From a virus, in the IMG/VR virus record IMGVR_UViG_3300045988_162176, positions 32,001 through 96,000 of that record: a stretch of DNA of 64,000 nucleotides; one strand, written 5' to 3'. How positions within the stretch are numbered: position 1 is the stretch's first letter; the number at the start of each line of letters is the position of its first letter. The translations under genes were made by a program, and so were the position numbers. Positions 26,141 to 64,000 of this stretch are shown piece after piece. The notes beneath the pieces were generated by a model. It was not told the DNA's origin. It did not search any database and was given only the letters and a program-made list of their open reading frames with translations.

Positions 26141-26530
26141 TTAAGTTTTTTTACCAATTTTATAAGGGTATAATTTTAATTCTTCTGATAAATCTTTATA
26201 CTGGATAGCTTTTTCTTCAATAAGATAAGAATCATTTTTCTTTTTTGAAGATTTCATATCTTTAAGATTTTTGCTACCACAATAAGGACAATAAATAAAT
26301 TCTTTTTCGAGAGCATATCTTGTAATGAATTCTGGATTAGATAAAGTAGAAGTTGCGTGCATATATTCTCTGCAATTTATACAATAAGAATAAAAAGCTC
26401 CATCATGGATAAATTTAATTACAAGCCAGTCTCCATTTCGAAATAAGACTCTGTAACGAGGGTCATTACCATTGTACTGATAATCACTGTACTTCGCTTG
26501 TCTTATCTTCTTTCTTTGTTTCTTCGACAT
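26141..26530 (-). CDS. hypothetical protein with zinc-ribbon-like cysteines
   Basis: 129 aa; CINC...CPYCG. Confidence 0.7.
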   Translation of the reverse strand: MSKKQRKKIRQAKYSDYQYNGNDPRYRVLFRNGDWLVIKFIHDGAFYSYCINCREYMHATSTLSNPEFITRYALEKEFIYCPYCGSKNLKDMKSSKKKNDSYLIEEKAIQYKDLSEELKLYPYKIGKKT

Positions 26531-26535
26531 TTTCT

Positions 26536-26832
26536 TTATTTTAACTTTCCTTGAAATAAATATGTTACTGTAGTATTTGTTTTGTCGGCAATAATCATAA
26601 AATCACGGCAAGTAAGAAAATATTTTTTATGAATAATTTTTCTTACATTCTTTTCTGAAATATTAAGAAATTCAGCCCACTGCTTGTATGAATAAGGACT
26701 TGCTTTCATTACTTTGCTTACTCGCTTTAATTTATCCATATAAGGTTTATTAGGATGAATATAATAGAATTTAATATAATACCAAAAACCAAGAAGTTTA
26801 TTTTTAAAATTTTTCATGGCTTCTTTTTCCAT
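26536..26832 (-). CDS. possible helix-turn-helix protein
   Basis: 98 aa; KQWAEFLNISEKNVRKIIHKK resembles an HTH. Confidence 0.5.
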   Translation of the reverse strand: MEKEAMKNFKNKLLGFWYYIKFYYIHPNKPYMDKLKRVSKVMKASPYSYKQWAEFLNISEKNVRKIIHKKYFLTCRDFMIIADKTNTTVTYLFQGKLK

Positions 26833-29019: not shown

Positions 29020-29200
29020 AGAAATTGAAATCCTTACGGATAATTCTTACTGCTTCATAATATATGCTTTCACGATTATAAATAATCCGCTATTCGCAGG
29101 TCCTTGTATATTCCACAGTCGTAAATTCCCGAAATAGCCTTCGGTACATACTTATGATTGCTTAATTATACAATTTCATAAGTTAAAGCATCTCTCAAAT
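29020..29200 (-). ncRNA. probable TnpB omega-RNA (reRNA) scaffold
   Basis: By analogy with characterised TnpB loci, the guide RNA overlaps the 3' end of tnpB and the right end; the region is visibly G+C-richer and hairpin-rich (e.g. CCGAAGGCTATTTCGG). Confidence 0.45.
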
Positions 29201-30317
29201 TAAGACTTGCATTGAAATCTCTATCTGCAATATAACCACATGAACAGTAGTATACTCTGTCTGAAAGTTTTAAGTCTTTATTAATATTACCACAACAATG
29301 ACATAATTTAGAAGAGGGATAAAATCTATCTACAATTCTTAATTCAATATCATTTTCGGCACATTTAACTTTTAATTTTGTTCTAAATTCATAAAACTTT
29401 TGTGCGGCAATAGCTTTTGAAAGATACTTATTCTTCATCATACCTGATATATCTAAATTTTCAATAGTTATATAAGATGGCTTGGTTTTTACTATCTCAG
29501 CTATTATTTTATTGATATAATCAGTTCGAATATTAGTTATTTTATGATAAAGTTTTTGTACTTTAAGTTTTTGTTTTTGTATATTTTTTTGAGTGCTGCC
29601 TCCTTTCTTAAAATTTTCATATTTACGAGAAAGACATCGTTGTTCTCTTCGTAATTGTTTTTCTATTTTTTTTATTTCCCTTGATTTGTTGATATTTTTA
29701 TATATTTTACCATTTGAAATAACGGCAAAATCTTTCAAACCCAAATCAATTCCTATACCTTCATTAAAATTGTGCGCAATTTGAATATTTGGCATCTCTA
29801 CTAAAACAGATACAAAATATTTATTTGCTTTAATAGATACTGTGCCGCTCTTAATTTTCAAACCGCTTTTAGATACTGGTATATAACCTTTTTCTTTTAA
29901 ACGAACCCATCCCAAACTTGGAATTTTAATTCTATGTCTTTCACAAAGACAATCGGTTAAATTATTTTTAACAAAATACATTTTTACATCAGATTTTCCT
30001 TTTTTCTTAAATTTAGGATAACCTGATTGATGTTTAAAAAATTTTGTAAAAGCAGCATATCCATCTTCAATAGATTTTTTTACTGCTTTTGAATATACTT
30101 CTTTAATCCATATTTTGTCAGGATTGTTTGGAATATATTCATTATTAAGCCATAAACTAAAACTTTTTCCTGTTACAAATTTTTTATTTCGGTCATATAA
30201 TTCTTTATTATAAGACAAATAAAAATTGTAAATATATCTACAAGTCCCAATTGTTTTATTAATTTGAATCTTTTGTTCTTTTGTTGGATTTATTTCCGTT
30301 TTAAAACTTTTTAACAT
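29166..30317 (-). CDS. tnpB: TnpB (IS200/IS605-family RNA-guided nuclease, OrfB)
   Basis: 383 aa; N-terminal FKTEINPTKEQ; RuvC motifs IGIDLG, ITIENL, ADRDFNASLNL; zinc finger CHCCG...CSCG. Confidence 0.9.
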   Translation of the reverse strand: MLKSFKTEINPTKEQKIQINKTIGTCRYIYNFYLSYNKELYDRNKKFVTGKSFSLWLNNEYIPNNPDKIWIKEVYSKAVKKSIEDGYAAFTKFFKHQSGYPKFKKKGKSDVKMYFVKNNLTDCLCERHRIKIPSLGWVRLKEKGYIPVSKSGLKIKSGTVSIKANKYFVSVLVEMPNIQIAHNFNEGIGIDLGLKDFAVISNGKIYKNINKSREIKKIEKQLRREQRCLSRKYENFKKGGSTQKNIQKQKLKVQKLYHKITNIRTDYINKIIAEIVKTKPSYITIENLDISGMMKNKYLSKAIAAQKFYEFRTKLKVKCAENDIELRIVDRFYPSSKLCHCCGNINKDLKLSDRVYYCSCGYIADRDFNASLNLRDALTYEIV

Positions 30318-49115: not shown

Positions 49116-49571
49116 TTACTTACAACCAAAGCGCTTCTTAGAAATCGCTTCAATCGAAGGAATCTTTTCAGTGTTGATGCTCTTCTTAGCACAATAATGT
49201 TCAATGGTTGCAACCAGAACTCGTGCATCAAGAAGCATTGCAAGAATCTTACGGTCAAATGCTCGATGATACTTTTCAAGAGCCTTGCCACGAGCAAACT
49301 CCTTGCCAATGTCCTCAACGAACTTATCACCGTCAGCATGGTTTACCTTAGCCTTACCACGATAGCTGTTTTCAAGAAGAGTGTTCTCCCAAATACCTTC
49401 AAGAGAAATAGTCTTCATATCAGCCTTTTCACAAAGACGAGTAATAACATGCATTGCATCAAATGCAGTATCAGTTACCTCAGCCTTGACTACGCCACCA
49501 CTCTCATAAACACCATAAGCAATGGAAGAGTTAGACGGTCGGGAAATGTCATTCTTGCAGTTGTCACACAT
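49116..49571 (-). CDS. hypothetical protein
   Basis: 151-aa ORF followed by terminator 49031-49062. Confidence 0.75.
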   Translation of the reverse strand: MCDNCKNDISRPSNSSIAYGVYESGGVVKAEVTDTAFDAMHVITRLCEKADMKTISLEGIWENTLLENSYRGKAKVNHADGDKFVEDIGKEFARGKALEKYHRAFDRKILAMLLDARVLVATIEHYCAKKSINTEKIPSIEAISKKRFGCK

Positions 49572-49678
49572 AATTTTTTGTCTCCTTTAATTTCTTTGTT
49601 TTACTTTAGTTATTATTTTAGTTTTTTGTTTCTTCTGCTTATATGTCAAAAGGAAAAATACTTTTCCTTAGATATTTC

Positions 49679-49749
49679 AGCGGCGACTTCGAATCGAACG
49701 AGCATTTCACGGGTTAGAGCCGTGCGCATTGACCATTATACTACGCCGC
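49679..49749 (-). tRNA. suppressor tRNA, anticodon CTA (reads UAG)
   Basis: GCGGCGT AG TATAATGGTCAATGCG C ACGGC(CACGG) CTCTAAC CCGTG...TCGCCGC; perfect 5-bp anticodon stem, loop CT-CTA-AC; the T stem pairs only 3 bp; no encoded CCA. Confidence 0.7.
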
Positions 49750-49778
49750 AATGTTAAATAAAGTCAAATGACCTTAAG

Positions 49779-49855
49779 TGGCACGCCTGACGAGATTCGA
49801 ACTCATAAGATACACTTTAGAAGAGTGCGGTTTTATCCAATTAGACTACAGGCGC
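49779..49855 (-). tRNA. tRNA-Arg(TCT)
   Basis: Canonical cloverleaf, 77 nt, loop CTTCTAA, TTCGAAT T-loop, encoded CCA. Confidence 0.9.
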
Positions 49856-49860
49856 TTAAT

Positions 49861-49937
49861 AAAGCTAGACTCATTTTTCAAAACATTTGTAATCCCAAAT
49901 CACAAGTCTCTAAATAATTGCTGTAAGAGTCTACTTT
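49861..49937 (-). ncRNA. E-element 1 (simple)
   Basis: AAAG TAGACTC TTACAGCAA ..45 nt.. GAGTCTA G CTTT; ends 9 nt before tRNA-Arg(TCT). Confidence 0.6.
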
Positions 49938-49954
49938 ATTTTTTTATTTATAAA

Positions 49955-50090
49955 TGGTGGGAATGGAGTGACTCGAACACTCAATTTCCCGATTTGGTGT
50001 TTTAGACAAGTCTTGCACTTGCATTTGAAGTTTTACTTTTAAACTACTAAAACATAAGTCGGGCCCTCTGACCAATTGAGATACATCCCC
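49955..50090 (-). tRNA. tRNA-Ile(TAT)-like interrupted by a 59-nt insertion in the anticodon loop
   Basis: GGGGATG..CCCGA CTTAT[59 nt]AA TCGGG AAATT GAGTG TTCGAGT CACTC CATTCCC A CCA; all four stems pair. Confidence 0.7.
49995..50053 (-). ncRNA. tRNA-shaped insertion (I-type element I1) inside the tRNA-Ile anticodon loop
   Basis: GTTTTAG TA GTTT AAAAGTA AAAC ... CAAGT GCAAG ACTTG . CTAAAAC ACCA: 7-bp acceptor-like helix, D-like and T-like hairpins, 3' ACCA. Confidence 0.6.
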
Positions 50091-50100
50091 ATATAAAATC

Positions 50101-50192
50101 CTAGACACCATATAAAAATCTAAAAAAGTATTTATTCCAATTAAATATATTTCCCAGTATTTTTATTTTAATTGCTGTAAGTGTCTACTTTT
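50101..50192 (-). ncRNA. E-element 2 (simple)
   Basis: AAAAG TAGACAC TTACAGCAA ... GTGTCTA G; ends 10 nt before the interrupted tRNA-Ile. Confidence 0.6.
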
Positions 50193-50204
50193 AACATTAC
50201 TAAT

Positions 50205-50274
50205 CTAAACCCTATCCATAATCTTTTTTTCAAGCAAAAATTAAGTAGTTAAATTGCTGTAAGGGTTTACTTTT
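50205..50274 (-). ncRNA. E-element 3 (simple)
   Basis: AAAAG TAAACCC TTACAGCAA ... GGGTTTA G; directly upstream of E2. Confidence 0.6.
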
Positions 50275-50326
50275 AAATCATCAATAACTTACCATCTTGT
50301 TTGTAGTACTCCAAACAATTCAATCT

Positions 50327-50392
50327 TGCACCGTGGGGGATTCGAACCCCTCTTAAGCCCTCCGTCGAGCGACCCCAACCTTGGTACGGCAC
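50327..50392 (-). ncRNA. tRNA-like element (acceptor stem + T arm, non-canonical body)
   Basis: GTGCCGT...AGGGG TTCGAAT CCCCC ACGGTGC A; only about 66 nt; no convincing D or anticodon arms. Confidence 0.4.
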
Positions 50393-50399
50393 TTATAAA

Positions 50400-50540
50400 C
50401 TAGACGCATAATACTAACAAAGGAGAATCATGAAAGCATCATAAACTAATTAGCAAGGAACAATACCCAAAATCTTTTTTTAAATATTAGAATTTTTTTA
50501 TAGAATTTGATTTTTATTATTGTTTGCTGTAAGCGTCTAC
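50400..50540 (-). ncRNA. E-element 4 (long AT-rich interior)
   Basis: G TAGACGC TTACAGCAA ..110 nt.. GCGTCTA G. Confidence 0.55.
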
Positions 50541-50565
50541 GTTAGATAATTTGAATTGTTGCTTA

Positions 50566-50646
50566 TGGCAGGGATGGAAGGATTCGAACCTTCGAAAAAA
50601 ACTCATAGAGTCAAAGTCTACTGCCTTACCGCTTGGCTACACCCCT
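50566..50646 (-). tRNA. tRNA-Gln(TTG)-like with a type-II-style D arm and an 11-nt unstructured variable region
   Basis: AGGGGTG TA GCC AAGCGGTAA GGC A GTAGA CTTTGAC TCTAT GAGTTTTTTTC GAAGG TTCGAAT CCTTC CATCCCT G CCA. Confidence 0.65.
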
Positions 50647-50653
50647 ATATATT

Positions 50654-50780
50654 TTCCTTAGCTGGTGGTTCCGATTCGCCCATCCAGAACTCCCTACTTG
50701 AGTGCCATTCTATACTCATTAGAGGCTTTCCGACTGAAGGGTATTTTAATTTATTTATCGTCTTTTAAACTACTAAGGAA
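50654..50780 (-). ncRNA. free-standing I-type tRNA-like spacer RNA (I3)
   Basis: 8-bp closing helix TTCCTTAG/CTAAGGAA, then TA GTTT AAAAG..., the same start as the two anticodon-loop insertions; 3' hairpin CTGGATGG..CCACCAG. Confidence 0.5.
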
Positions 50781-50781
50781 T

Positions 50782-50856
50782 TGGAGCAGAAGACGGGAAT
50801 CGAACCCGCACCTACGACCTCGGAAGCCGTTATTCTCACCATTAAACCACTTCTGC
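50782..50856 (-). tRNA. tRNA-Arg(CCG)
   Basis: Canonical 75-nt cloverleaf, loop TTCCGAG, encoded CCA; first gene after promoter 50887-50915. Confidence 0.9.
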
Positions 50857-50886
50857 AAGGTTGGTTTATCTCTCAACCACATCTTA

Positions 50887-50915
50887 AGTATAACATATAC
50901 TTTTCATCTTGTCAA
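50887..50915 (-). promoter_or_regulatory. promoter of tRNA/E-element operon (Arg-CCG to Sup-CTA)
   Basis: TTGACA-17-TATACT. Confidence 0.65.
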
Positions 50916-51106
50916 GTACTTTTTAAAATTTCTTTTTGGAAGATTTTTTCGTTCAAATTAAGGAGGACAAAAACTTTTTGATACCAAAACAACTCAAGAC
51001 CAAGAAGTTCACAAAGAGCATCAACATCTTTCATTGTATACTTGTCTTTCTTTAAAGCTTTAATTTTTTCAACAATTTCCTCTTCTAAGAATAAAAATTC
51101 GTCCAT
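50912..51106 (-). CDS. hypothetical small protein inside the tRNA island
   Basis: 64-aa ORF; RBS AAGAGGA. Confidence 0.55.
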   Translation of the reverse strand: MDEFLFLEEEIVEKIKALKKDKYTMKDVDALCELLGLELFWYQKVFVLLNLNEKIFQKEILKST

Positions 51107-51143
51107 AATAAAAATCCTCTTTTATTTGGGGAAAAATTCTAAA

Positions 51144-51216
51144 ATGAAGTGGTTGGAATCGAACCAACGACCAGCGAAGATACCCCAACGCCGCTCTACC
51201 CCTGAGCTACACTTCA
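51144..51216 (-). tRNA. atypical tRNA or tRNA pseudogene (defective anticodon arm)
   Basis: Good acceptor, D (GCTC AGGGGTA GAGC) and T (GTTGG TTCGATT CCAAC) arms, but the anticodon arm has only GCG/CGC pairing around TTGGGGTATCTT. Confidence 0.45.
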
Positions 51217-51217
51217 A

Positions 51218-51292
51218 TGGAGCTGGATGAGAATTTTGAAATCTCGACTTCCACTTTACAAGAGTGGCGCTCTGCCTCTGAGCTAATCCAGC
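51218..51292 (-). tRNA. tRNA-Thr(TGT)
   Basis: 75-nt cloverleaf, loop CTTGTAA, encoded CCA. Confidence 0.85.
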
Positions 51293-51317
51293 AAATAAAG
51301 GACTAAACAAATAGTCC

Positions 51318-51833
51318 TTATCCACGAGTACGTTTCCAATAATTTGCCATTTTATATTCAGGCTTATTAGTAACTTCCTCGATAAACACTTCAGGAAAAG
51401 GCCAAACATAACTATTAGCTTCTTCCTCAGAATCAAATTCAACTTCGGCATAATAGAAGGCATTATCAGTTCCGCCATCTACAAGATTGAATTCAATTAA
51501 ATAACCATTATTGTAAAGACCTCTATAATCTTTTACAATAGGATTATAACCAAGTTCATTAAAACAGTCAAACAAAGAATTATCTGTAAGATTTGTTTCA
51601 ATTTCAGTACGAGTTAAAGTACCACCAGACTTGAAAGTAAGAGCATCTGGACGATAACCTTTGCCACTTTCAAACCAACGTCTTATACGAATTTCCTGTG
51701 AAATTTTTCCATCAGAATTATATTTGATATTAATATAAATAGTTTTAACAATTCCGACTTCATCAAAATCGACTTTAGGAAAACCAGAGATTAAAAACTT
51801 ACGTTCGATTTCGATTGAATTATTATTACTCAT
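51318..51833 (-). CDS. CYTH-domain (triphosphate tunnel metalloenzyme) protein
   Basis: 171 aa; N-terminal EIERKFL (ExExK signature), later acidic/basic beta-strand pattern (EIRIRR, YAEVEF). Confidence 0.75.
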   Translation of the reverse strand: MSNNNSIEIERKFLISGFPKVDFDEVGIVKTIYINIKYNSDGKISQEIRIRRWFESGKGYRPDALTFKSGGTLTRTEIETNLTDNSLFDCFNELGYNPIVKDYRGLYNNGYLIEFNLVDGGTDNAFYYAEVEFDSEEEANSYVWPFPEVFIEEVTNKPEYKMANYWKRTRG

Positions 51834-51852
51834 TTTTAATCTCCTTTTTCCA

Positions 51853-51947
51853 TGGCACTAGCGGTAAGATTCGAACTCACGAGACGGATACAAGCCGTCA
51901 CACATCATTTCAAGTGATGGCAGTTATGACCACTTCTGTACGCTAGC
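51853..51947 (-). tRNA. tRNA-Ser(TGA)
   Basis: 95 nt, long variable arm, loop CTTGAAA, encoded CCA. Confidence 0.85.
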
Positions 51948-51954
51948 ATTTATT

Positions 51955-52260
51955 TTATGTTTCAGAGAACAGATAGATACCTTTTTCTCCTACATCCTTT
52001 TTAATATCAGTAAATTCTTTATCACTAATTTGAGTCATTGGAGGGAATACACTTTTGAAAGAAGAACAACCATCTTTTTCAATAGTAACCATTTGTTTCT
52101 TACAAACTGGGCAAGTATAATTCCAAGATAAAAAATTAGTTTCATCCTTAGCAATTTTCATCTCTACTACTTGCATTATTCCCTTATTACAATGAGGACA
52201 TCTATAAACAAACTTTTTATTACTTGCTGTCTAATAAATGTAAGTCTTAAAATTAGTCAT
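51955..52260 (-). CDS. double zinc-ribbon small protein, TAG-recoded
   Basis: MTNFKTYIY*TASNKKFVYRCPHCNKGIMQVVEM...CPVCKK; 102 codons. Confidence 0.6.
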
Positions 52261-52284
52261 TAGAATTTACTTCCTTTTATTTTT

Positions 52285-52372
52285 TGGTTGCTGAAGCATG
52301 GGAGTCGAACCCACTATCGTACAGGGTATGAACCTGACATGATTTATAATTATCCGTTTCACTCGCCAGCAA
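52285..52372 (-). tRNA. atypical tRNA, probable anticodon CAT (Met/Ile2), with extra nucleotides between the D and anticodon arms
   Basis: Starts directly after the CCA of tRNA-Cys; TCAGG TTCATAC CCTGT arm, GTGGG TTCGACT CCCAT T arm, acceptor TTGCTG/CAGCAA, CCA. Confidence 0.5.
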
Positions 52373-52448
52373 TGGTGGACCTGACAAGACTTGAACTTGC
52401 GACTTCCTGCGTGCAAAGCAGACACTCTCCCAACTGAGTTACAGGCCC
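52373..52448 (-). tRNA. tRNA-Cys(GCA)
   Basis: Canonical 76-nt cloverleaf, loop TTTGCAC. Confidence 0.9.
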
Positions 52449-52989
52449 ATAATTAAACTATACTCCCAAATAGCAACAGAGTTTTTTACAAGAACTCTAT
52501 AACTTGGCTTTTGTTGTTCATCCTCAGCACCACCTGTTAGGAGCAATAAGCAGTATGCTCGGCTTATTGTGTTTTAAGGTTACATGACCCATAACCTCAA
52601 TACCTACCCCGATTTAGTTGCAGTAATCAGAGTTTTTGTTTGAACAAGTACGCAACCACTTGTCCCCGTAAACACGGCACAGACTTCTCCGTATAGCTTT
52701 TCGCTGTAGGTTTTTGATGTTACATTCGCACCCTAACATCTCTCGCCATATATCTGTGTTCTGCCCATGTGCGGCTCATAGCCTTTTTCAGCTTGTGACA
52801 GCTTACTTTGCGTTCGAGAACCATTCACTTGTTCTCTACTCCAAGACTTCGGACGGGCGTTGGGGCTTTAGCTTAACGGACTAAAGGTGAGTTCAAATAT
52901 ATGAAACACCGACGAGGCTTTAGCCATCCTTGCTGAATCGGGCAGTTTAATATAAGTTATATTCTCTGTCTGCCAATTGATATATAACT
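52449..52989 (-). ncRNA. large (about 0.54 kb) structured RNA between tRNA-Leu(CAA) and tRNA-Cys (L2)
   Basis: No ORF on the minus strand; markedly G+C-richer; many local and long-range complementary segments. Confidence 0.55.
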
Positions 52990-53074
52990 TGGTGGCTAAG
53001 GTGGGACTTGAACCCACATCTCTTTCGAGGGTTGTACTTGAAGCAACTGCGTATGCCAATTTCGCCACTCAGCC
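52990..53074 (-). tRNA. tRNA-Leu(CAA)
   Basis: 85 nt, long variable arm, loop TTCAAGT, TTCAAGT T-loop, CCA. Confidence 0.85.
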
Positions 53075-53087
53075 ATAATAATTAATA

Positions 53088-53209
53088 CTAGACACGTTTT
53101 TTTTGATATCGGTCATCCAGACATCCCCCGAAGGAGACGGAAGAATCGAACTTCCCCGTTTAATTTTCCATATTAAAGAATCAAGTAATTTTGCTGTGCG
53201 TGTCTACTT
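53088..53209 (-). ncRNA. E-element 5 with a closed-acceptor tRNA-like domain
   Basis: AAG TAGACACG CACAGCAA ... GGAAG TTCGATT CTTCC GTCTCC TTCG GGGGAT ... CGTGTCTA G; ends 12 nt before tRNA-Leu(CAA). Confidence 0.6.
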
Positions 53210-53260
53210 GAAAGGAATTTATATTTGCCTATTAGAAAAATAGGAGCGTCAATCTATTAA

Positions 53261-53392
53261 CTAGACTCATTTTACAAAATCTGTTGCTCTACCAGTTGAG
53301 CTAACTCCCGATGGTCGGGAGCAGAGGATTCGAACCTCCAACACACAGGCCCATAGCATTTGTGATTGTAAAGTTGCTGTTAGAGTCTACTT
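53261..53392 (-). ncRNA. E-element 6 enclosing the permuted tRNA-Gln
   Basis: AAG TAGACTC TAACAGCAA C TTTACAA ... [permuted tRNA] ... TTGTAAA AT GAGTCTA G. Confidence 0.6.
53273..53349 (-). tRNA. circularly permuted tRNA-Gln(TTG)-like module (3' half, CCA, T, 5' half) inside E-element 6
   Basis: CCTGT GTGTT GGAGG TTCGAAT CCTCT GCTCCCG A CCA T CGGGAGT TA GCTC AACTGGTA GAGC A ACAGA TTTTGTA; the acceptor halves are mutually complementary. Confidence 0.6.
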
Positions 53393-53466
53393 GAAAGGAA
53401 TGCTTTTATGAACAATAAAAAATGAACATTAGCTTACAAATAAATTTGTATCTTTACCATGTTTTT

Positions 53467-53495
53467 ACTATAACATAAAATTTTCATTTTGTCAA
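53467..53495 (-). promoter_or_regulatory. promoter of the E6-E5-tRNA-Leu-L2-tRNA-Cys unit
   Basis: TTGACA-17-TATAGT. Confidence 0.65.
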
Positions 53496-53518
53496 GAATT
53501 TTAAAACAAAAATTTTAC

Positions 53519-53603
53519 TGGTGGGTGAGGAAGGTGCCGACCCTTCTACTCCGTTAGGAAAGAGTTTTACAGACTCCCGTGTTTGCCGATTCACTACTCA
53601 CCT
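53519..53603 (-). tRNA. tRNA-Tyr(GTA)
   Basis: 85 nt, long variable arm, loop CTGTAAA; unusual T-loop GTCGGCA. Confidence 0.75.
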
Positions 53604-53633
53604 ATTTAATTATTTTCCTTTTTTAGAAAGGGG

Positions 53634-53698
53634 CTAGACGCTTTTTGTGTATTCTTATTTAACAGATAAGTACATTTAAATTGCTGTAAGCGTCTACT
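53634..53698 (-). ncRNA. E-element 7 (simple, with an anticodon-arm-like hairpin)
   Basis: AG TAGACGC TTACAGCAA ... CTTAT CTGTTAA ATAAG ... GCGTCTA G. Confidence 0.55.
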
Positions 53699-53732
53699 AT
53701 TGAAGTCATTACAAAATTAGCATTTCTGCTAT

Positions 53733-53808
53733 TGGTGCTCATGGAGGGACTCGAACCCTCGACAGACGGCTTAAAAGGCCGCTACTCTACCAACTGAGTT
53801 ACATGGGC
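53733..53808 (-). tRNA. tRNA-Lys(TTT)
   Basis: 76 nt, loop CTTTTAA, one C-A mismatch in the acceptor stem. Confidence 0.85.
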
Positions 53809-53815
53809 ATAAATA

Positions 53816-53951
53816 CTAGAGACATTGTTGTTATGGACTCCTGCCTTAAACCACTTGGCTACATACTTCAACTGAAGACGTTCGGATTCGAACCGAAGAA
53901 TGGGAGTTTGGCTTCTAACATACTTTCAGAATTGCTGTTAGTCTCTACTTT
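53816..53951 (-). ncRNA. E-element 8 with a closed-acceptor tRNA-like domain
   Basis: AAAG TAGAGAC TAACAGCAA ... ACTCC CATTC TTCGG TTCGAAT CCGAA CGTCTTC AGTT GAAG.. GCC AAGTGGTTTAA GGC A GGAGT ... GTCTCTA G. Confidence 0.6.
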
Positions 53952-54119
53952 ATAAATATCTTATTGAAAGGAAATTATTCATATCAGATAGAGAGAAAGG
54001 AGAAATAATATCTCGTCAAATAATTAATTCTTAACCCTTCGATAGATTTAAGTTCCCCTCATTTAAATCCGATAAAACTTACTCACACTATCATAAGAAC
54101 GGATTTCTGATTTGAATAA

Positions 54120-54195
54120 TGGTACTCGGTACGGGGTTCGAACCCGTGCTACTGACGTGAAAGGCCAGTGTCTTAGCCCACTTGACTAACCGAGC
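54120..54195 (-). tRNA. tRNA-Glu(TTC)
   Basis: 76 nt, loop CTTTCAC. Confidence 0.85.
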
Positions 54196-54203
54196 ATATT
54201 AAC

Positions 54204-54324
54204 CTAGACTCTTTTGCGTATTATTCACCACAGAGCGCCCTCTGACGAGAATCGAACTCGCTAATGATTGTTTTGCAGACAATTGTGTTAACCTTTTTAA
54301 GAATTTGCTGTAAGAGTCTACTTT
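54204..54324 (-). ncRNA. E-element 9 with a closed-acceptor tRNA-like domain
   Basis: AAAG TAGACTC TTACAGCAA ... GCGAG TTCGATT CTCGT CAGAG GGCG CTCTG TGG... GAGTCTA G; ends 8 nt before tRNA-Glu. Confidence 0.6.
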
Positions 54325-54353
54325 ATTATTCAGGAGGTTTTACCTATGCACTT

Positions 54354-54382
54354 ATTATAACATATCATCTTTAAGATGTCAA
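54354..54382 (-). promoter_or_regulatory. promoter of the E9-tRNA-Glu-E8-tRNA-Lys-E7-tRNA-Tyr unit
   Basis: TTGACA-17-TATAAT. Confidence 0.65.
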
Positions 54383-54494
54383 CCACTTATTAAAATTTTC
54401 TTTTTGCTTTTTATCTTTTTGAGAAGTTTTTATTTTGCTCTTTTCTTAAGATGTATTTATCTTACCACACTTTTAGATTTCTGTCAAGACTTTA

Positions 54495-54887
54495 TTAGAA
54501 ATTTTCTTTTTCGAAATGATTAGCAAAAGCTATATAATTTTGACTTTTAATAAGCTCCTCAAAAACCTCTACAGGAGGCTCAACAAAGTTTCTAATAAGG
54601 TCTACTAATTCTATCATAGAATTAGCTTCGAGGGTAAAGATTAAACCATCATATGGAATACATCTATAAACCCATTTGCCTGACGTACTTTGATAACAAT
54701 CGGCATTAGTCCAAACTTGAGTAGCATCTAAAATACGAGATTCCCAAGGATATTTAATAATTTCAGAACCTCTTTTATACCAATAATTAAATTCTTTATC
54801 TTTTAAAATATCATTGGTTTCAAGCTCGCACTCGTCGCCATTACAAATAGAATAATGACCGACAATTTTAAATGAAGAAGTATCCAT
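54495..54887 (-). CDS. hypothetical protein
   Basis: 130-aa ORF. Confidence 0.7.
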   Translation of the reverse strand: MDTSSFKIVGHYSICNGDECELETNDILKDKEFNYWYKRGSEIIKYPWESRILDATQVWTNADCYQSTSGKWVYRCIPYDGLIFTLEANSMIELVDLIRNFVEPPVEVFEELIKSQNYIAFANHFEKENF

Positions 54888-55159
54888 TACTCAGTAACCT
54901 CAGCGTAAGTTAATTCCATAATATCAGGCTTAACGGGATAAAATTCACCCTTAATTCCCTTAACAATGTAATCTCCTACAGAAGCACAGTGATAACCTTC
55001 AAGAGTATAAATAATAAGATTCTTTTTAATTCCCTTCATTGTATGTTCAGTAGTAACACAACAATGAGCGCCAACGAAACTTGTAATTTCTTCTTCGTTA
55101 TCGCCAGTCCAGATAATTGCTTGAATAGCAATAGGTTTCTTAATATATGTCTTAATCAT
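54887..55159 (-). CDS. hypothetical small protein
   Basis: 90-aa ORF. Confidence 0.7.
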   Translation of the reverse strand: MIKTYIKKPIAIQAIIWTGDNEEEITSFVGAHCCVTTEHTMKGIKKNLIIYTLEGYHCASVGDYIVKGIKGEFYPVKPDIMELTYAEVTE

Positions 55160-55175
55160 ATCTCTTCACCTTGAC

Positions 55176-55472
55176 TCATCTATATTTATACTTAAGTTGA
55201 CAAGACTTCAACCAAATCCAAAACAAAAGAGAAGCGTCAATTCCATCTACTTCATTCATAATGCGATAATTATCAGAATCTTTTTCAGGATAGCCATAAA
55301 CTACTTGTGCATCATAGCACTAAACAAGATACTTACAATTTGTCTTAGATATAATAGCAAGCTCACTTATATAATTAAATTTATCAACTTTCTTTTCGTA
55401 ATAAGTCCCGAATTTATCTGAAGAGATAAGTTTATATCCATGTTTAGCAAACTGTTTGTCAATATAATCCAT
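55176..55472 (-). CDS. hypothetical small protein, TAG-recoded
   Basis: MDYIDKQFAKHGYKLISSDKFGTYYEKKVDKFNYISELAIISKTNCKYLV*CYDAQVVYGYPEK...; TAG at 55320-55322; 99 codons. Confidence 0.55.
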
Positions 55473-55835
55473 AAAAATACCCTTTTATTTTATTAAATAT
55501 ATAAGGAACAAAAACTGATAACTACTGACAGACCAGCTTTTCACTTATCTGTCCTCGGTTTGGCTGAGGAGGGGCTATTCCTTATAAGGGGCTTACACTC
55601 AACTATCTTGGTCATTTTCATTATCAGTTTTGCTCATTGCATAAGGGTTTAACGTACCCAGTTAAGCAAAGCAACGGTCTTTCTATTGTTACCAGTCCAT
55701 CAGACTTGGAGGGCGGTTCAGTGTCGAATACATTGTAACCAGCTAAACTGTATTCCAAGATAAGTTTCGTACTATATCTTACGGATTTCTTGTTTTTTTA
55801 AAAAGACATCAAGAAATATCTAACCATTCTGTCTT
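55473..55835 (-). ncRNA. structured non-coding region L4
   Basis: About 360 nt without an ORF between E13 and the CDS start at 55472; hairpins (GACAGA..TCTGTC, TCCTC..GAGGA, repeated AGCCCCT). Confidence 0.35.
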
Positions 55836-55936
55836 TTGGAGCGGCATCGAAGAATCGAACTCCAAACATAATAAAAGTATTGTCCATGGCTACTTTTATT
55901 ATTACACCAGTTGCCGCATATTTGCTGTCTCTCCAA
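55836..55936 (-). ncRNA. E-like element 13 enclosing a normal-order tRNA-like RNA with a 12-bp arm
   Basis: TTGGAG AG ACAGCAA ATAT GCGGCAA CTGGTG TAATAATAAAAGTA GCCATGGACAA TACTTTTATTATG TT TGGAG TTCGATT CTTCG ATGCCGC TCCAA. Confidence 0.4.
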
Positions 55937-56010
55937 GCTGTCACCGCTAATATGGTTGTAGGTTCTGGACGGTCTGAACTTAGGTGCGCCATACACACAT
56001 CCTAACATTA

Positions 56011-56123
56011 AGCGATACTCCATCTGTTAGGCGAACTTCCATCTTTATAAGACGGTATCGTAGTTACTGGACCTCATAATTGGATTCGAACCAACTTCCT
56101 CTCCCGATGTGGCTGTTATCGCT
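56011..56123 (-). ncRNA. E-element 12 (divergent) with a tRNA-like domain
   Basis: AGCGATA ACAGCC ... GTTGG TTCGAAT CCAAT TTATGAG ..21 nt.. CTTATAA ... TATCGCT. Confidence 0.45.
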
Positions 56124-56509
56124 AAGGAGCTACCTTAGTGTTTATTCAACATCAGTTATCGAGAATGCACCATTACACTAATGGGGATATAAATGTTATA
56201 GACCTTTTAACTATAACTCACAGGCTTTCCCTTATTCAAACAAGGTGGCGGGACGTGTGCTGTGTTTTTAAAAGAAAGTCCTTGTTATACTTTTTCTTTC
56301 AAGGATTTAGTGGTAAGAACTTTTCTTGACCATAGGCGTTCTCAAACCTACTCCTTTACCTATATGCTCAACATAAATTAGGTTAAGCATCTCAACCTTG
56401 AGGTCAACTGGGGTATCTTACAGCCGTTCGGTTTATTTTTAGTTTGAGTAAACCTTCCTCAAACACTCCTTCATCCACTTTTTTACAAGGATACGGAATC
56501 CACGAGTTT
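56124..56509 (-). ncRNA. structured non-coding region L3
   Basis: About 385 nt without an ORF between tRNA-Ser(GCT) and E12; dense hairpins (GTTTGAG..CTCAAAC, ATGCTTAAC..GTTGAGCAT, GTTATAG..CTATAAC). Confidence 0.4.
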
Positions 56510-56597
56510 TGGCGCAGATAACAGGATTCGAACCTGTATTACCTTACGGTAAGCGGCTGTAGCAGAGCCGTGAGATAGCCAATTACTCCATATCTGC
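56510..56597 (-). tRNA. tRNA-Ser(GCT)
   Basis: 88 nt, long variable arm CTTACCGTAAGG, loop CTGCTAC. Confidence 0.85.
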
Positions 56598-56609
56598 ATA
56601 ATGAGCAAT

Positions 56610-56737
56610 CTTGACACTTTTTTCTAGCCAACCACGGTTAACCATTCCTTGCTCAAGGGATACGTTAATAAGGAGTCGAACCTTACACGACGTTATTCCA
56701 AAAACATAAAATAAATTTGCTGTGAGTGTCAACTTTT
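56610..56737 (-). ncRNA. E-element 10 with a tRNA-like domain
   Basis: AAAAG TTGACAC TCACAGCAA ... TAAGG TTCGACT CCTTA TTAAC..CCTT GAGC AAGG..GTTAA ... GTGTCAA G; ends 12 nt before tRNA-Ser(GCT). Confidence 0.55.
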
Positions 56738-56755
56738 GTTTAAATTTAAGTCTGA

Positions 56756-56833
56756 TGGTGGGAATAACAGGACTCGAACCTGTAAGCCTCCGCCGTGTAA
56801 AGGCGGCATTCTAACCAGTTGAACTATACTCCC
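56756..56833 (-). tRNA. tRNA-Val(TAC)
   Basis: 78 nt, loop TTTACAC. Confidence 0.85.
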
Positions 56834-56972
56834 ATATAATATTGGTTTTTACGTTAAATACCAGAGGACTTTCGTATTTTACCAACAAACCTCACGTTAC
56901 TTGACTTATTTATAGACGTTGAGTAATTACGTCTCAACAATACATTTATTAAGATAAGAAAGGAAAATTATC

Positions 56973-57419
56973 TTAGCCTACTGCTTCTTCAGTTACAGTA
57001 TCTTCATCAGGGATAACATTACCAGTGTTATCAATCTTGTCATTCGAAGGAACAGGATTGGTGTTTTGAAGCTGGCTCTCCTTCAATTTTTCATCATGAA
57101 GTTCACGATTCACCTCATAAACAGCGGCTTCAATAGCCTTACGAACTTCATCTGCATCAAGAGTGATACCAAGAGCTTCCATCTGCTGATTAAAATACTT
57201 TGTTGCTTCCTGCAAGCGCTTTTCAATTTCCCGTGGGAACATCTGCTCAACAGCCTTAACTGCAATCAAAGCATACTTATGAATAAGTTCTGCTTGAGTA
57301 AGAGCATGATTAACATCGTCCAACTTACCCTTCTTCTTAAGATAAGGAATAAGGACAACTGTAAAAATCAAAGAGCACAAACCAATTACAGCAACTACGA
57401 TAGGGGTAATATCAGTCAT
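56973..57419 (-). CDS. membrane-anchored protein
   Basis: 148 aa; N-terminal TM helix; downstream of promoter 57447-57475. Confidence 0.75.
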   Translation of the reverse strand: MTDITPIVVAVIGLCSLIFTVVLIPYLKKKGKLDDVNHALTQAELIHKYALIAVKAVEQMFPREIEKRLQEATKYFNQQMEALGITLDADEVRKAIEAAVYEVNRELHDEKLKESQLQNTNPVPSNDKIDNTGNVIPDEDTVTEEAVG

Positions 57420-57446
57420 TTTTCGTACTTCCTTTTTACATTTTGA

Positions 57447-57475
57447 ATTATAGCATCTAACAAACGCTTTGTCAA
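57447..57475 (-). promoter_or_regulatory. sigma-70-type promoter
   Basis: TTGACA-17-TATAAT. Confidence 0.65.
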
Positions 57476-57497
57476 GTGTTTATTAAATAAAATTTGA

Positions 57498-57631
57498 TGG
57501 AGCAAGATACGAGATTCGAACTCGCCCTTACGGTTTTGGTCCTTTAAGTAAGACTTGAACTTACATCAATGGTTTTTCATTAAACTATTAAAGGGGAAGA
57601 CCGTCGTGCTAACCACTAACACTAATCCTGC
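57498..57631 (-). tRNA. tRNA-Gly(TCC)-like interrupted by a 58-nt insertion in the anticodon loop
   Basis: GCAGGAT TA GTGT TAGTGGTTA GCAC G ACGGT CTTCC[58 nt]AA ACCGT AAGG GCGAG TTCGAAT CTCGT ATCTTGC T CCA. Confidence 0.7.
57537..57594 (-). ncRNA. tRNA-shaped insertion (I-type element I2) inside the tRNA-Gly anticodon loop
   Basis: CCTTTAA TA GTTT AATGA AAAC CATTGAT GTAAG TTCAAGT CTTAC TTAAAGG ACCA; homologous to I1 with a covarying 7-bp helix. Confidence 0.6.
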
Positions 57632-57781
57632 ATATATGATGCCACTCACGCATGAATGGCATCAAACCCCACGCTCCGTAGAGACCTCATGCTAGCCTGA
57701 TAGGTTTCCTACTAAGATACCAGTAAAGTAATGAGCTTAACCAGACAAACGTAGACTTAACCAGTGGAGTATCTAGCTTAA
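57632..57781 (-). ncRNA. structured leader upstream of the interrupted tRNA-Gly
   Basis: 150 nt without an ORF; hairpin GATGCCA..TGGCATC; repeated CTGGTTAAG. Confidence 0.3.
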
Positions 57782-58254: not shown

Positions 58255-58728
58255 TTACTTTTTCACCGAAGTCACGCCATTAAAATCATACAAACGTACA
58301 ATATGGCTTAGTCCTAAAGTGTCAGAAATATCAGCACTAATGATAGACCAATCTCCACCAGCAAGACCACACCCAATCATATAAGGCATAGCAATCTCTT
58401 CTCCAATAGGAATCATTTCACGAATCTTAAGAAGACATTCATGAAAATATTCATAGTTGGTGTTTACATTTGGTCCACCAATGCCAATCTGAGAAAACAT
58501 ATTAAGAAAAACTTTATCTTTGTTTTCCTCAATTCGAAGAACTTTACCATAAAGCTCTTCAGGAGTATGATAACTACAAAACTTATTATACTCCAAATAA
58601 ACATGAGGATAATTCTTCTTAATTTGAAGAGCAACACCAGCGCCCATTACACCAAAGGTATTAGCCTGATGACAAATATACTTTGCCGAAGTCTTAAGGA
58701 CATCGCCTTGAATAATAGACACTGACAT
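58255..58728 (-). CDS. macro-domain protein (ADP-ribose binding/hydrolase fold)
   Basis: 157 aa; IIQGDVL...YICHQANTFGVMGAGVALQIKKNYP...IGCGLAGGDW. Confidence 0.75.
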   Translation of the reverse strand: MSVSIIQGDVLKTSAKYICHQANTFGVMGAGVALQIKKNYPHVYLEYNKFCSYHTPEELYGKVLRIEENKDKVFLNMFSQIGIGGPNVNTNYEYFHECLLKIREMIPIGEEIAMPYMIGCGLAGGDWSIISADISDTLGLSHIVRLYDFNGVTSVKK

Positions 58729-60796: not shown

Positions 60797-61546
60797 TTAT
60801 CTTTTGATTTTGTTTACAATTTCATTTAGGAATTTTGCTGGGGAAGAATTTTCTTCAAGATAATTGCTTCCATTAATAAAACTATCAAAAGACTCGTCAA
60901 AAGCTACTTCTATCGACTTTTTTTTATTGTCAATTAAATCATCAAATTTTTGATATGCCAAACCAAAATTATATCCCCAATTATAAGACCTTATGCGATT
61001 ATTGTTTAAACTCGTTGATGCTAAAGCTCCAAATTCACAAGCTAATCCAAAAAGCACGGCAGTTTTCCTACTATTTACTTCTGCTATATCAAAAGTCTTA
61101 AAAGTTTCTAGATACTGACCAGAAGCCATTAATTGAATAGTATTAGAAAGTGTTTGTACAGCCTCAATTTTATTGCCTAAAGGAAGATAACATTCAGTTA
61201 AATTTTTAAAAGCGGCAGCAATTAAACCCCCTCCAGCCAAAATTGCCGCAGCCTCACCAAATTTTTTGTGAGTTGTTTCTCTATCACGACGATAATTATC
61301 ATTATCCATACAAGGTAAATCATCATAAATCAAGCTCATATTGTGAATATATTCTATAGCCATTGCATAAGAAATTGCATCCTGTGCATTTCCTCCATAA
61401 AATTCACACCATGCAAGCGTCATATATGGTCTAAGACGTTTACCTTCTTGTAACGCATAATTCTCTACAGGCCCAAGATAATCTTCAAATTTATTTTCTT
61501 GTAAATAGTCTTCAATTATTTTCTCGTATTTTTTTTGCAAATCCAT
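60797..61546 (-). CDS. polyprenyl (farnesyl/geranylgeranyl) diphosphate synthase
   Basis: Start at MDLQKKYEK; first Asp-rich motif LIYDDLPCMDNDNYRR, second FDDLID, KRLRP near the N-terminus. Confidence 0.85.
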   Translation of the reverse strand: MDLQKKYEKIIEDYLQENKFEDYLGPVENYALQEGKRLRPYMTLAWCEFYGGNAQDAISYAMAIEYIHNMSLIYDDLPCMDNDNYRRDRETTHKKFGEAAAILAGGGLIAAAFKNLTECYLPLGNKIEAVQTLSNTIQLMASGQYLETFKTFDIAEVNSRKTAVLFGLACEFGALASTSLNNNRIRSYNWGYNFGLAYQKFDDLIDNKKKSIEVAFDESFDSFINGSNYLEENSSPAKFLNEIVNKIKR

Positions 61547-61601
61547 GTTATTTTCTCTCAATTCAATTTGTTTAATTCAAAGTCTATTTTGTAAAAATGA
61601 A

Positions 61602-63275: not shown

Positions 63276-64000
63276 TTAAACAGACTCATTGGTAAATACC
63301 TTCTGACTAATAAAGTCTTTACCTTCTTCACTTGTTAAAATTGGCATTTCATAATCAAGAATCCACTTATAACGAATAGCCTCCTGACCATCTTTGCCAA
63401 TAACAGTAGTAGGAACACGATATGCACAAGTACCACGTTTCTCTACTGTTGTATAATCGTTCCAGTTTACACCCTTTTCAGTAAACATCTTATCCTGTAA
63501 TTTGGTAGTATTAATACCATGAAGTTCTTTTTGAGAATACAAAGATTGAGCAACTGCCTGAATAGAATTTCGAGTACAATCCTGCTGTCTCCAAACAAAA
63601 TAATTATGCACTTCAAAGGCAGGGACAACAAATACTCTACTATCAAAGGTGGGCATTTCTTTTCCCTTACGAACCATTTTCCAATCGTAAGAATCTTGAT
63701 TCATATTAAAGATATCTAAGGTTGTATCAATAATAGTATTCTCGGCAAAATAATTATTAAACCAAAGAGTACAAAGAGCCGCAGATGTACTAACAATTTT
63801 TTGAATATTATTGTCAAACCATGGCTGAGAATTTCTTTCGCTCTGAATCATGACAAGAGAAATTTCATCTGACTCAACATAACCAAACTTAACATTTGGA
63901 ATAATTTCACAGAGCTTAAGCATAGTCTGTTGCATGGTTTTAACAAAAATAGGGTCAAAAGGTTTCTTCATACCACGGCAGAATGAATGAAAATGAGCTC
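63276..64000 (-). CDS. Thg1-like protein (tRNA-His guanylyltransferase family 3'-5' nucleotidyltransferase), N-terminus beyond the window
   Basis: GYVESDEISLV, FDSRVFVVP..EVHNYFVWRQQDCTRNS match Thg1/TLP motifs; the frame stays open upstream of the listed Met to position 64000 (..AHFHSFCRGMKKPFDP). Confidence 0.8.
   Translation of the reverse strand, partial: AHFHSFCRGMKKPFDPIFVKTMQQTMLKLCEIIPNVKFGYVESDEISLVMIQSERNSQPWFDNNIQKIVSTSAALCTLWFNNYFAENTIIDTTLDIFNMNQDSYDWKMVRKGKEMPTFDSRVFVVPAFEVHNYFVWRQQDCTRNSIQAVAQSLYSQKELHGINTTKLQDKMFTEKGVNWNDYTTVEKRGTCAYRVPTTVIGKDGQEAIRYKWILDYEMPILTSEEGKDFISQKVFTNESV

Follow-up and report, generated by a model that had tools for sequence, protein, structure and literature searches.

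An island of transfer RNA (tRNA) genes in the viral DNA studied here is interleaved with short repeated sequences of one common design, which raises the question of what these sequences are and with what they act. The DNA, referred to below as the window, is the 64,000-nucleotide (nt) stretch at positions 32,001 to 96,000 of the IMG/VR virus record IMGVR_UViG_3300045988_162176. The window is phage-like, with nearly all genes on the minus strand, and its phage is itself uncultured, since a megablast comparison of 19 kb of the window with cultured phages gave zero matches. The tRNA island spans 49.6-61.7 kb and holds 17 tRNAs called by ARAGORN and two more found by Rfam. Each of the repeated elements (E1 to E11) is closed by a short helix, named P1, and carries the heptamer ACAGCAA beside its 5' arm. 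That these elements are a real structured RNA family is strongly supported by the comparison across phages described below. We further propose, with a probability of about three in four, that they are Y-RNA-like small non-coding RNAs and the partners of a phage Ro60-like ring protein whose gene lies in the same window, the biogenesis, docking and function suggested below being part of that estimate.

Architecture and conservation of the elements

Eleven canonical elements were identified, all on the minus strand, ten of them at 49866-56732 and one at 37772-37831. At all 11 sites a perfect 5' arm of 7-8 base pairs (bp) ends 1-2 nt before ACAGCAA, and its reverse complement follows 60-139 nt further on, enclosing a variable interior of about 40-120 nt between ACAGCAA and the 3' arm. 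The closing stems follow the general form TAGACNC/GNGTCTA with zero mismatches and fall into six types (TAGACTC in four copies, TAGACAC and TAGACGC in two each, and TAAACCC, TAGAGAC and TTGACAC in one each). All 77 of the 77 pairs are Watson-Crick pairs, each of the ten differences from the commonest stem is compensated on the opposite arm, and a G stands directly 3' of the 3' arm in 11 of 11 copies. The heptamer is itself frequent in the window, whose minus strand has 14 sites and whose plus strand has 6. Dinucleotide shuffles, counted without regard to strand, yield 8.5 +/- 2.9 against the 20 observed, and none of 100 shuffles gets to 20. On a looser count, 13 of the 14 ACAGCAA sites have a 7-bp partner, compared with 0-5 of 14 when the arm is shifted 10-30 nt upstream, and the background in the tRNA island is low, 3.8% of all 7-mers having a perfect partner within 250 nt.

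A sequence-only reading of the window had already listed these stems, and its sequences were confirmed exactly for the 11 canonical copies. Its estimate of about 13 copies is reduced to 11 solid ones, and the sequence that it named E12 is retained as a candidate only, its core being ACAGCCA with neither linker nor trailing G. The claim that for most copies the next tRNA starts 7-12 nt further on stands in part: six of the ten island copies end 8, 9, 10, 11, 13 or 14 nt before a tRNA 5' end, one lies 31 nt from its tRNA, and three precede another element or unannotated sequence. A loose scan that permitted one core mismatch and G-U pairs returned mostly noise, and its candidates at 55937-55705 and 52945-52761 were unconvincing.

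To extend the comparison beyond the window, 80 homologous loci of the Ro60-like protein gene were fetched (44-97% protein identity, flanks of up to 10 kb on each side), and 93 distinct copies of the element were aligned at two anchors, the heptamer and the base that pairs with the last base of the arm. All seven helix pairs show changes on both sides, with 185 cells against 39 +/- 6 in shuffles, so that the covariation first read from the window holds across 93 non-identical copies. Pairing falls from 99% to 30-50% when the partner is slid by 1-3 columns; the 99% is given by construction, since the copies were chosen for perfect arms, whereas the diversity of pair types is not. The stems vary between lineages (AAGACAC, GAGACGC, AAGGCAC, TAAGCTC, TCGACTC, GGGGCGC and others), and the consensus reads W-A-G-R-C-N-C, 2 nt, ACAGCAA and a U-rich stretch, followed further on by an A-rich stretch, G-N-G-Y-C-U-W and G, the trailing G being kept in more than 90% of the copies. 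The invariant heptamer, which the sequence-only reading had taken to be single-stranded, is predicted to be unpaired with a value of 0.72 against 0.51 for the interiors. Among ACAGCAA sites with unique contexts at the homologous loci, 302 lie on the gene strand and 59 on the other strand; a perfect closing arm of at least 7 bp was found at 134 of the 302 gene-strand sites, compared with 4-15% for shifted arms and 3 of 59 on the opposite strand.

A mini covariance model built from 93 trimmed elements (arms and core, interior removed) recovered only one of the 11 window copies at E < 0.01. The model was dropped because it was unable to bridge interiors of 40-120 nt and matched the 5' arm to spurious partners close by, and elements were finally detected by pattern-plus-complement scans with shifted-arm controls.

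The Ro60-like protein gene and its linkage to the elements

E11 sits in the 5' untranslated region (UTR) of a gene with a DUF2828 domain, between its predicted TTGACA-17-TATAGT promoter and its ribosome-binding site. An AlphaFold2 model of the 572-aa product, made from 26 homologues, has a mean predicted local distance difference test score (pLDDT) of 66, and its top PDB match by Foldseek is human Ro60 (9nen; E 4e-5, 527 aligned columns, template modelling (TM) scores 0.40/0.44). In every other PDB fold match, either the vWA domain or the helical repeats are aligned, but not both. Furthermore, the Pfam family vWA_Ro60 ('Ro60 vWA domain') is matched by 9 of the 26 homologues, and GenBank records of mycobacteriophages name the homologue 'Ro-like RNA binding protein'. 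More than 5000 relatives of the protein were found in IMG/VR, mostly on phage contigs of 100-220 kb, and a tblastn search among cultured phages found the protein in 692 records, whose carriers include Felix O1, P100/A511, cluster L mycobacteriophages, Tsamsa-like Bacillus phages and jumbo vibriophages.

The gp130 protein of phage Bas63, which we take to be a Felixounavirus (a Felix-O1-like phage), probably belongs to the same protein family, because of this presumed kinship, its Ro60-like structure and its site upstream of tRNA genes. As published, gp130 has a Ro60-like structure, is encoded directly upstream of tRNA genes and counters the Ppl defence system (PMC11482910). In the P100-like Listeria phage CKA15, the homologue is reported to have Deinococcus radiodurans Rsr as its top HHpred match and to be present in virions (PMC12282133).

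The linkage between the elements and the Ro60-like gene is tight and ancient. A strict element ends 0-150 nt upstream of the start codon at 55 of 74 distinct loci, often as two to four copies in tandem, and 90 of about 155 elements at the homologous loci lie within 500 nt upstream of the gene. Most of the other loci, as judged by eye, carry TCAGCAA or GCAGCAA variants, or stems that are 6 bp long or contain G-U pairs. Six cultured phages with proteins of 32-37% identity were examined, and the motif stands beside the gene in all six, with three to five copies each. Listeria phage P100 has a tandem of three copies (stems GGAATC, GAGAGC and GGAAGC) that stands between the gene and a sigma-A-type promoter; Bacillus phage Tsamsa has five, two of them with core variants (ACAGCGA and ACAGCTA) and one directly upstream of the gene; and Enterococcus phage VRE9_2 has four beside the gene. 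Three copies follow in tandem just downstream of the gene in Mycobacterium phage LeBron, three lie downstream in Staphylococcus phage S-CoN_Ph2, and in Salmonella phage Felix O1a four lie downstream and are interleaved with tRNAs, with gaps of 13-15 nt where a tRNA is directly next. In CKA15, ACAGCAA elements occupy 25,216-25,610, directly upstream of CKA15_055.

The linkage is also recovered when the search starts from the RNA. With only the 5' half-site (AAGACACNNACAGCAA) as the query, IMG/VR yielded 120 stretches, and the complementary arm GTGTCTT was present within 250 nt in 42 of them, where about two would be expected by chance. The protein gene lies within about 8.5 kb in 17 of the 42 stretches with the arm, always on the same strand, versus 2 of the 78 without it (Fisher p = 1.4e-7).

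Genes of RNA metabolism occur in some of these phages as well. RtcB, an RNA ligase and an HD hydrolase are encoded just downstream of the gene in P100, and LeBron encodes an RNA ligase and a polynucleotide kinase (PMC13148394). Among the tRNA genes of the window, the minus strand encodes a Thg1-like tRNA-His guanylyltransferase / 3'-5' polymerase (63276-63971), a phosphatase of PHROG 335 (58255-58728) and a polyprenyl synthetase (60797-61561); the Thg1-like enzyme and the phosphatase fit with a tRNA repair theme.

Table 1. Elements, the divergent candidate and the Ro60-like protein gene in the window.
Feature	Position	Strand	Length	Closing stem (5' arm/3' arm)	Interior or content	Neighbourhood
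E1	49866..49933	-	68 nt	TAGACTC/GAGTCTA	simple hairpin; core ACAGCAA at 49924-49918	tRNA-Arg(UCU) 10 nt on
E2	50102..50187	-	86 nt	TAGACAC/GTGTCTA	AU-rich hairpin	insertion-bearing tRNA 50090-49958 begins 11 nt on
E3	50206..50269	-	64 nt	TAAACCC(T)/(A)GGGTTTA		E2 comes 18 nt later
E4	50401..50539	-	139 nt	TAGACGC/GCGTCTA	AU-rich	
E5	53089..53206	-	118 nt	TAGACACG/CGTGTCTA	T-arm-like hairpin GGAAG TTCGATT CTTCC stacked on TTCG-capped stem	tRNA-Leu 14 nt on
E6	53262..53389	-	128 nt	TAGACTC/GAGTCTA	circularly closed tRNA-like domain: T arm, acceptor-like stem closed by CCA-containing loop, D arm	
E7	53635..53696	-	62 nt	TAGACGC(T)/(A)GCGTCTA	hairpin CTTAT[CTGTTAA]ATAAG, similar to tRNA-Asn(GUU) anticodon stem-loop	tRNA-Tyr 31 nt on
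E8	53817..53947	-	131 nt	TAGAGAC/GTCTCTA	T arm TTCGG TTCGAAT CCGAA, acceptor-like hairpin, D-arm-like stretch	tRNA-Lys 8 nt on
E9	54205..54320	-	116 nt	TAGACTC(T)/(A)GAGTCTA	anticodon-loop-like hairpin ATTGT[CTGCAAA]ACAAT (Cys-like loop), T arm, capped acceptor-like stem	tRNA-Glu 9 nt on; putative sigma-70-like promoter upstream (read by eye; no promoter scan)
E10	56611..56732	-	122 nt	TTGACAC(T)/(A)GTGTCAA	T-arm-like hairpin TAAGG TTCGACT CCTTA	tRNA-Ser(GCU) 13 nt on
E11	37772..37831	-	60 nt	TAGACTCT/AGAGTCTA		5' UTR of Ro-like gene, 23 nt before ATG
Divergent candidate (uncertain)	56011..56123	-		AGCGATA/TATCGCT	T-arm-like; core ACAGCCA; neither linker nor trailing G	
DUF2828 + DUF7788 (vWA) gene	36030..37748	-	572 aa		Pfam domains; PHROG 850 'RNA-binding protein'; predicted Ro60-like fold; proposed partner	
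Sigma-70-type promoter (predicted, read from sequence)	37851..37879	-			TTGACA-17 nt-TATAGT	upstream of E11 and Ro-like gene, which it would drive

tRNA-like interiors, a proposed mechanism and its rivals

The interiors of the elements differ widely, and many are made of recognisable parts of tRNAs; the sequence-only reading had already described them as variable and partly tRNA-like. A hairpin with a stem of at least 5 bp and a 7-nt loop whose second position is U and whose sixth is a purine was present in 49 of 121 non-identical interiors, against 10.2 +/- 3.1 in shuffles. Its loops include T loops (TTCGAAT and TTCAAAT) and anticodon-loop-like sequences, with CTTTTAA six times and also CTGTTAA, CTGTAAA, CTGCAAA, CTTGAAA, CTGCTAA, CTGATAA and CTCATAA. 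In the window, E5, E8 and E10 contain T-arm modules, and E1-E4 and E11 are plain hairpins or AU-rich. A tRNA-like domain (T arm, acceptor-like stem and D arm) is enclosed in full by the terminal stem of E6 and in part by those of E5, E8, E9 and E10 (a T arm with or without the capped stem); it is absent from E1-E4, E7 and E11. Read directly, E6 consists of the 3' half of a tRNA, CCA, one nt and the 5' half of the same tRNA, and the arrangement of T arm, closed stem and D arm was found in one copy each of Tsamsa and VRE9_2.

In relatives, the design also occurs in a permuted form, in which P1 is capped by a small loop, is followed by ACAGCAA and forms an insertion of 45-56 nt inside a tRNA-shaped gene with acceptor-stem ends. 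Such genes were seen about 200-450 nt upstream of the DUF2828 gene at the homologous loci L025, L032, L040, L054 and L076, and at 9409-9649 of locus L044. The module either follows the D arm, ahead of an Asn-like (GUU) anticodon arm, or replaces the anticodon arm; at several loci it separates the D arm from an intact-looking anticodon arm of a tRNA-Asn-like gene. The gene at L044 9409-9526 scores 48.5 bits with the Rfam tRNA model, with 56 nt in the place of the anticodon loop, and the sequence after its heptamer, CTTTACAAATGCT, is identical to that in E6 of the window. Ordinary annotation labels these module-bearing genes as tRNAs or overlooks them.

Three unusual tRNA-like sequences were noted on the minus strand of the tRNA island. 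The Rfam tRNA match at 49958-50090 (133 nt, 51.8 bits, full model) is absent from the ARAGORN calls and carries an insertion of about 60 nt in the anticodon loop; this insertion lacks ACAGCAA and falls short of the length of a group I intron. Right after E4, the stretch at 50320-50392 is an unannotated tRNA-like sequence with an acceptor-type stem that includes two G-U pairs and a good T arm (GGGGTTCGAATCCCC), its D and anticodon arms not being clear. A 55-nt Rfam tRNA match at 57540-57594 (41.6 bits, full model span), likewise absent from ARAGORN, may be an arm-less tRNA or a tRNA-like fragment.

These features can be joined in a mechanism for the Y-RNA-like reading. The elements would be transcribed from sigma-70-type promoters within polycistronic tRNA precursors and freed by processing of the flanking tRNAs, a release by RNase P having already been put forward in the sequence-only reading; their 3' ends would be fixed by an RNase P cut 8-14 nt beyond the 3' arm. 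The P1 helix of 7-8 bp (A/U-A-G-R-C-N-C paired to G-N-G-Y-C-U-A/U), with its linker of 1-2 nt, the unpaired ACAGCAA and the G after the 3' arm, may then be a binding site of the Ro-like protein, just as Ro60 binds the conserved bulged helix of Y RNAs; we infer this docking on P1 and ACAGCAA from co-occurrence and from the analogy with Ro60 and Y RNAs. The interior is the variable effector part and is built of tRNA pieces, namely anticodon-stem-loop look-alikes, a T arm with a capped acceptor stem, or an almost entire closed tRNA domain like that of bacterial YrlA. The resulting ribonucleoprotein (RNP) would show these look-alikes to enzymes that act on tRNAs, be they host defence or anticodon nucleases or enzymes of repair or decay, and could serve tRNA protection or repair, or counter-defence, during infection. 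An element in the 5' UTR of the protein's own gene would couple the output of RNA and protein and may permit autoregulation. A role in RNA repair or counter-defence is favoured by the genomic and published context, that is, RtcB, ligase and HD hydrolase in P100, the Thg1-like enzyme and phosphatase in the island, the ligase and kinase of LeBron, the virion protein of CKA15 and gp130 of Bas63.

It is also possible, and we suggest it tentatively, that P1 and ACAGCAA form a transferable docking arm, which phages have joined to pieces of tRNAs, and that the array displays anticodon-loop look-alikes (Lys-UUU, Asn-GUU, Tyr-GUA, Cys-GCA and others) on the Ro-like ring as a decoy and repair platform against host defences that cleave tRNAs or target other nucleic acids, each RNA being tuned to one target tRNA. 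The arm may occur in three topologies, in which it closes a tRNA-like or anticodon-loop-like interior, replaces the anticodon arm of a tRNA-ended RNA, or is inserted between the D and anticodon arms of an otherwise complete tRNA-Asn-like gene.

Several observations weigh against the reading of the elements as Y-RNA-like partners of the Ro60-like protein. The Ro60-binding motif of bacterial Y RNAs, GNCGAAN0-1G (searched as G.CGAA), is absent from 11 of 11 window copies. Pfam TROVE (PF05731) does not match the protein even at E <= 10, the solved Ro60 chains in the PDB were not found by phmmer or by profile search, and the link of the protein to Ro60 is at the level of the fold only (pLDDT 66, TM 0.40-0.44). 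In the window, 12-19 kb separate the DUF2828 gene from ten of the 11 copies. Within the roughly 8.5 kb covered, 25 of the 42 arm-bearing stretches of the RNA-first scan contain no DUF2828 gene, and therefore some elements may have a partner other than the DUF2828 protein. A second helix adjoining the core, between the 5-6 nt after ACAGCAA and the nt before the 3' arm, has no fixed-register support; its 45% of paired cells is about the chance level of AU-rich sequence. Finally, the protein-RNA partnership is argued from genomic association and analogy, and RNA binding, expression and processing are inferred.

The rival that survives best, although we consider it unlikely, is that the elements are cis-acting leaders of tRNA precursors, hairpins that guide or time processing by RNase P, E or Z or stabilise the polycistronic transcript, with neither a protein partner nor an independent existence after cleavage. 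The distance of 8-14 nt to the tRNA 5' end in six of the ten island copies, with its counterpart in Felix O1a, is what such leaders might be expected to show, but copies with no tRNA next to them occupy the 5' UTR of the DUF2828 gene at 55 of 74 loci, and P100, LeBron and the Staphylococcus phage carry tandem arrays free of tRNAs. Moreover, a processing hairpin would need neither an unpaired heptamer that is invariant from mycobacteriophages to Felix O1 nor a tRNA-like interior.

Still less probable is a marking of sites of RNA cutting and rejoining by the stem and ACAGCAA, the elements then being permuted or interrupted tRNA genes matured by an endonuclease and an RNA ligase (RtcB or Rnl) into tRNAs or circular RNAs. 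The order of 3' half, CCA and 5' half of one tRNA in E6 would suit this scheme, as would the module insertions in tRNA-shaped genes of relatives and the RtcB and RNA ligase near the gene in P100. However, many interiors have no tRNA halves (E1-E4, E11 and copies in other phages), and removal of the module at L044 9409-9526, which replaces the anticodon arm, would leave no anticodon. Rfam models of self-cleaving ribozymes and of group I and group II introns gave no match in 49500-57700 at E <= 5, and the RNA that the domain of E6 matches is YrlA, which is a Y RNA and not a known tRNA precursor.

Action at the DNA level, as mini transposons with terminal inverted repeats, integron attC-type single-strand sites or paired operator half-sites, is hardly credible: inverted repeats do surround 40-130 bp of variable sequence at a high copy number in one region, but their orientation follows transcription (302 gene-strand against 59 other-strand unique sites), the arms covary rather than being copied, the interiors are mutually unrelated and contain modules typical of RNA (T loops, anticodon-like loops and UUCG caps), a reading of the flanks revealed no target duplications (no systematic search was made), the 5' UTR position is kept over 32-97% protein identity, and no integrase is present among the island open reading frames (ORFs) checked, the sole transposase found being a TnpB that lies about 20 kb away from the island and whose nearest copy, at about 7 kb, is E11. 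The unrelated interiors, the strictly transcriptional orientation and the fixed 5' UTR place over deep divergence also uphold the earlier exclusion of transposon ends and promoters by the sequence-only reading.

Other features of the window were recorded in passing, all on the minus strand. A RAGATH-18 RNA at 29047-29119 (59.9 bits, above the gathering score) lies directly 3' of a 383-aa ORF at 29166-30317 with OrfB_IS605, Cas12f1-like TNB and HTH domains, that is, TnpB; together they look like a TnpB gene with its guide-RNA region inside a phage genome. A tRNA with anticodon CUA, of the amber-suppressor type and labelled Pyl by ARAGORN, is located at 49679-49749, and TAG is the stop codon of 5 of the 91 long reading frames of the window. 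Stop-codon recoding, which this tRNA suggested, was rejected, as reading TAG as sense merges no ORFs in the window. Two stretches within the tRNA island, 52450-52990 and 55500-56500, have no convincing ORF and no Rfam match at E <= 5 and may be large non-coding RNAs; the former opens with CTGCCCG..TCAGCAA..TGGGCAG, and the latter contains the weak candidates 55937-55705 and 56123-56011.

Comparison with known RNA systems

Non-coding RNAs are known near phage tRNA genes, among them the T4 species 1/2 RNAs and GOLLD. ROOL RNA resembles the elements in being a non-coding RNA near phage tRNA genes, and it lies near ACAGCAA elements in P100 and CKA15. We placed it at L083 4420-4971 (Listeria P100; 86 bits, E 7.5e-16, slightly short of the gathering score) and at L207 2796-3347 (OR088597.1 26195-26746, CKA15). 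The region 26,236-26,727 of CKA15, the one that its authors stress most and describe as most highly transcribed and probably non-coding, was covered with the spurious ORFs CKA15_059-061 and not assigned by the authors (PMC12282133); by Rfam it is ROOL RNA (90 bits, E 7e-18, just under the gathering score). ROOL and GOLLD differ from the elements in their length of 500-800 nt and their unrelated architecture, with zero sequence or structural relation to the elements found.

No Rfam 15 family matches any element at its gathering score, in agreement with the sequence-only reading, which had recognised no named RNA family. E6 is nevertheless recognisably related to YrlA (RF02553), which it matches at 53366-53268 with 39.8 bits (E 3.5e-6) against a gathering score of 69; the other ten copies give no match to this model at E <= 5. 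The aligned parts are the T arm, the closed acceptor-like stem, the D arm and a conserved AAUGCU; the basal stem of YrlA is not among them. A circularly closed tRNA-like domain is the hallmark of YrlA, and GNCGAAN0-1G near the 5' end is its presumed Rsr contact (PMC4201824). The elements are therefore not YrlA members as curated, because of the sub-threshold score of one copy and the lack of any match for ten, the absence of GNCGAA and a protein that is not of the TROVE family. Neither the Ro60-like gene in the same window nor this likeness to YrlA formed part of the sequence-only reading; together they give the elements a probable partner and place them beside a known kind of RNP.

Other phages have Ro-type ring proteins with Y-like RNAs encoded just upstream, namely Thermus phage phiLo (PMC12135203) and the mycobacteriophage, CcrColossus and phage G candidates (PMC4201824), and there too the RNP is proposed to engage host RNA enzymes. 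These systems differ in having a canonical TROVE Ro60 and RNAs with the CGAA motif; for phiLo only two RNAs are reported, with neither ACAGCAA nor interleaved tRNAs. The authors of the CKA15 (PMC12282133) and Bas63 (PMC11482910) papers guess that the nearby non-coding or 'tRNA' genes are Y RNAs, and neither paper gives an RNA motif. A description of the ACAGCAA motif was not found in the literature searched, the coverage of which was incomplete.

A close counterpart is YrlA with Rsr/Ro60 (Chen et al. 2014, PMC4201824). In both cases a small RNA has paired ends next to a conserved motif that is unpaired or bulged, a tRNA-mimicking effector part (T arm, closed acceptor-like stem and D arm), and several different forms per genome, at least one with a full tRNA-like domain; in both, RNA-repair genes are near and the RNA is encoded beside a protein gene, whose product is a ring of HEAT repeats and a vWA domain for YrlA and may have such a shape in the phages. 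In the phage elements, however, ACAGCAA after an AGRC.C helix takes the equivalent place of GNCGAAN0-1G, and the partner protein is of the DUF2828 family and not Pfam TROVE. The phage elements are also far more numerous (11 in one window) and interleaved with tRNA genes, many of their interiors are anticodon-loop mimics or plain hairpins, and permuted versions with tRNA ends exist. The best reading of this comparison is that the elements are a widespread new class of Y-RNA-like tRNA mimics, distinct from curated YrlA, in a system that would work like Ro60 and Y RNA. The searchable RNA signature AGRCNC, 1-2 nt, ACAGCAA ... GNGYCU, G points to probable partners of DUF2828 or 'Ro-like' proteins in at least 692 sequenced phages of the collection searched, and it suggests that part of the 'intergenic' or 'tRNA' annotation in phage tRNA islands consists of tRNA mimics. 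Such a system would bring a second protein family, with another recognition motif, into Y RNA biology.

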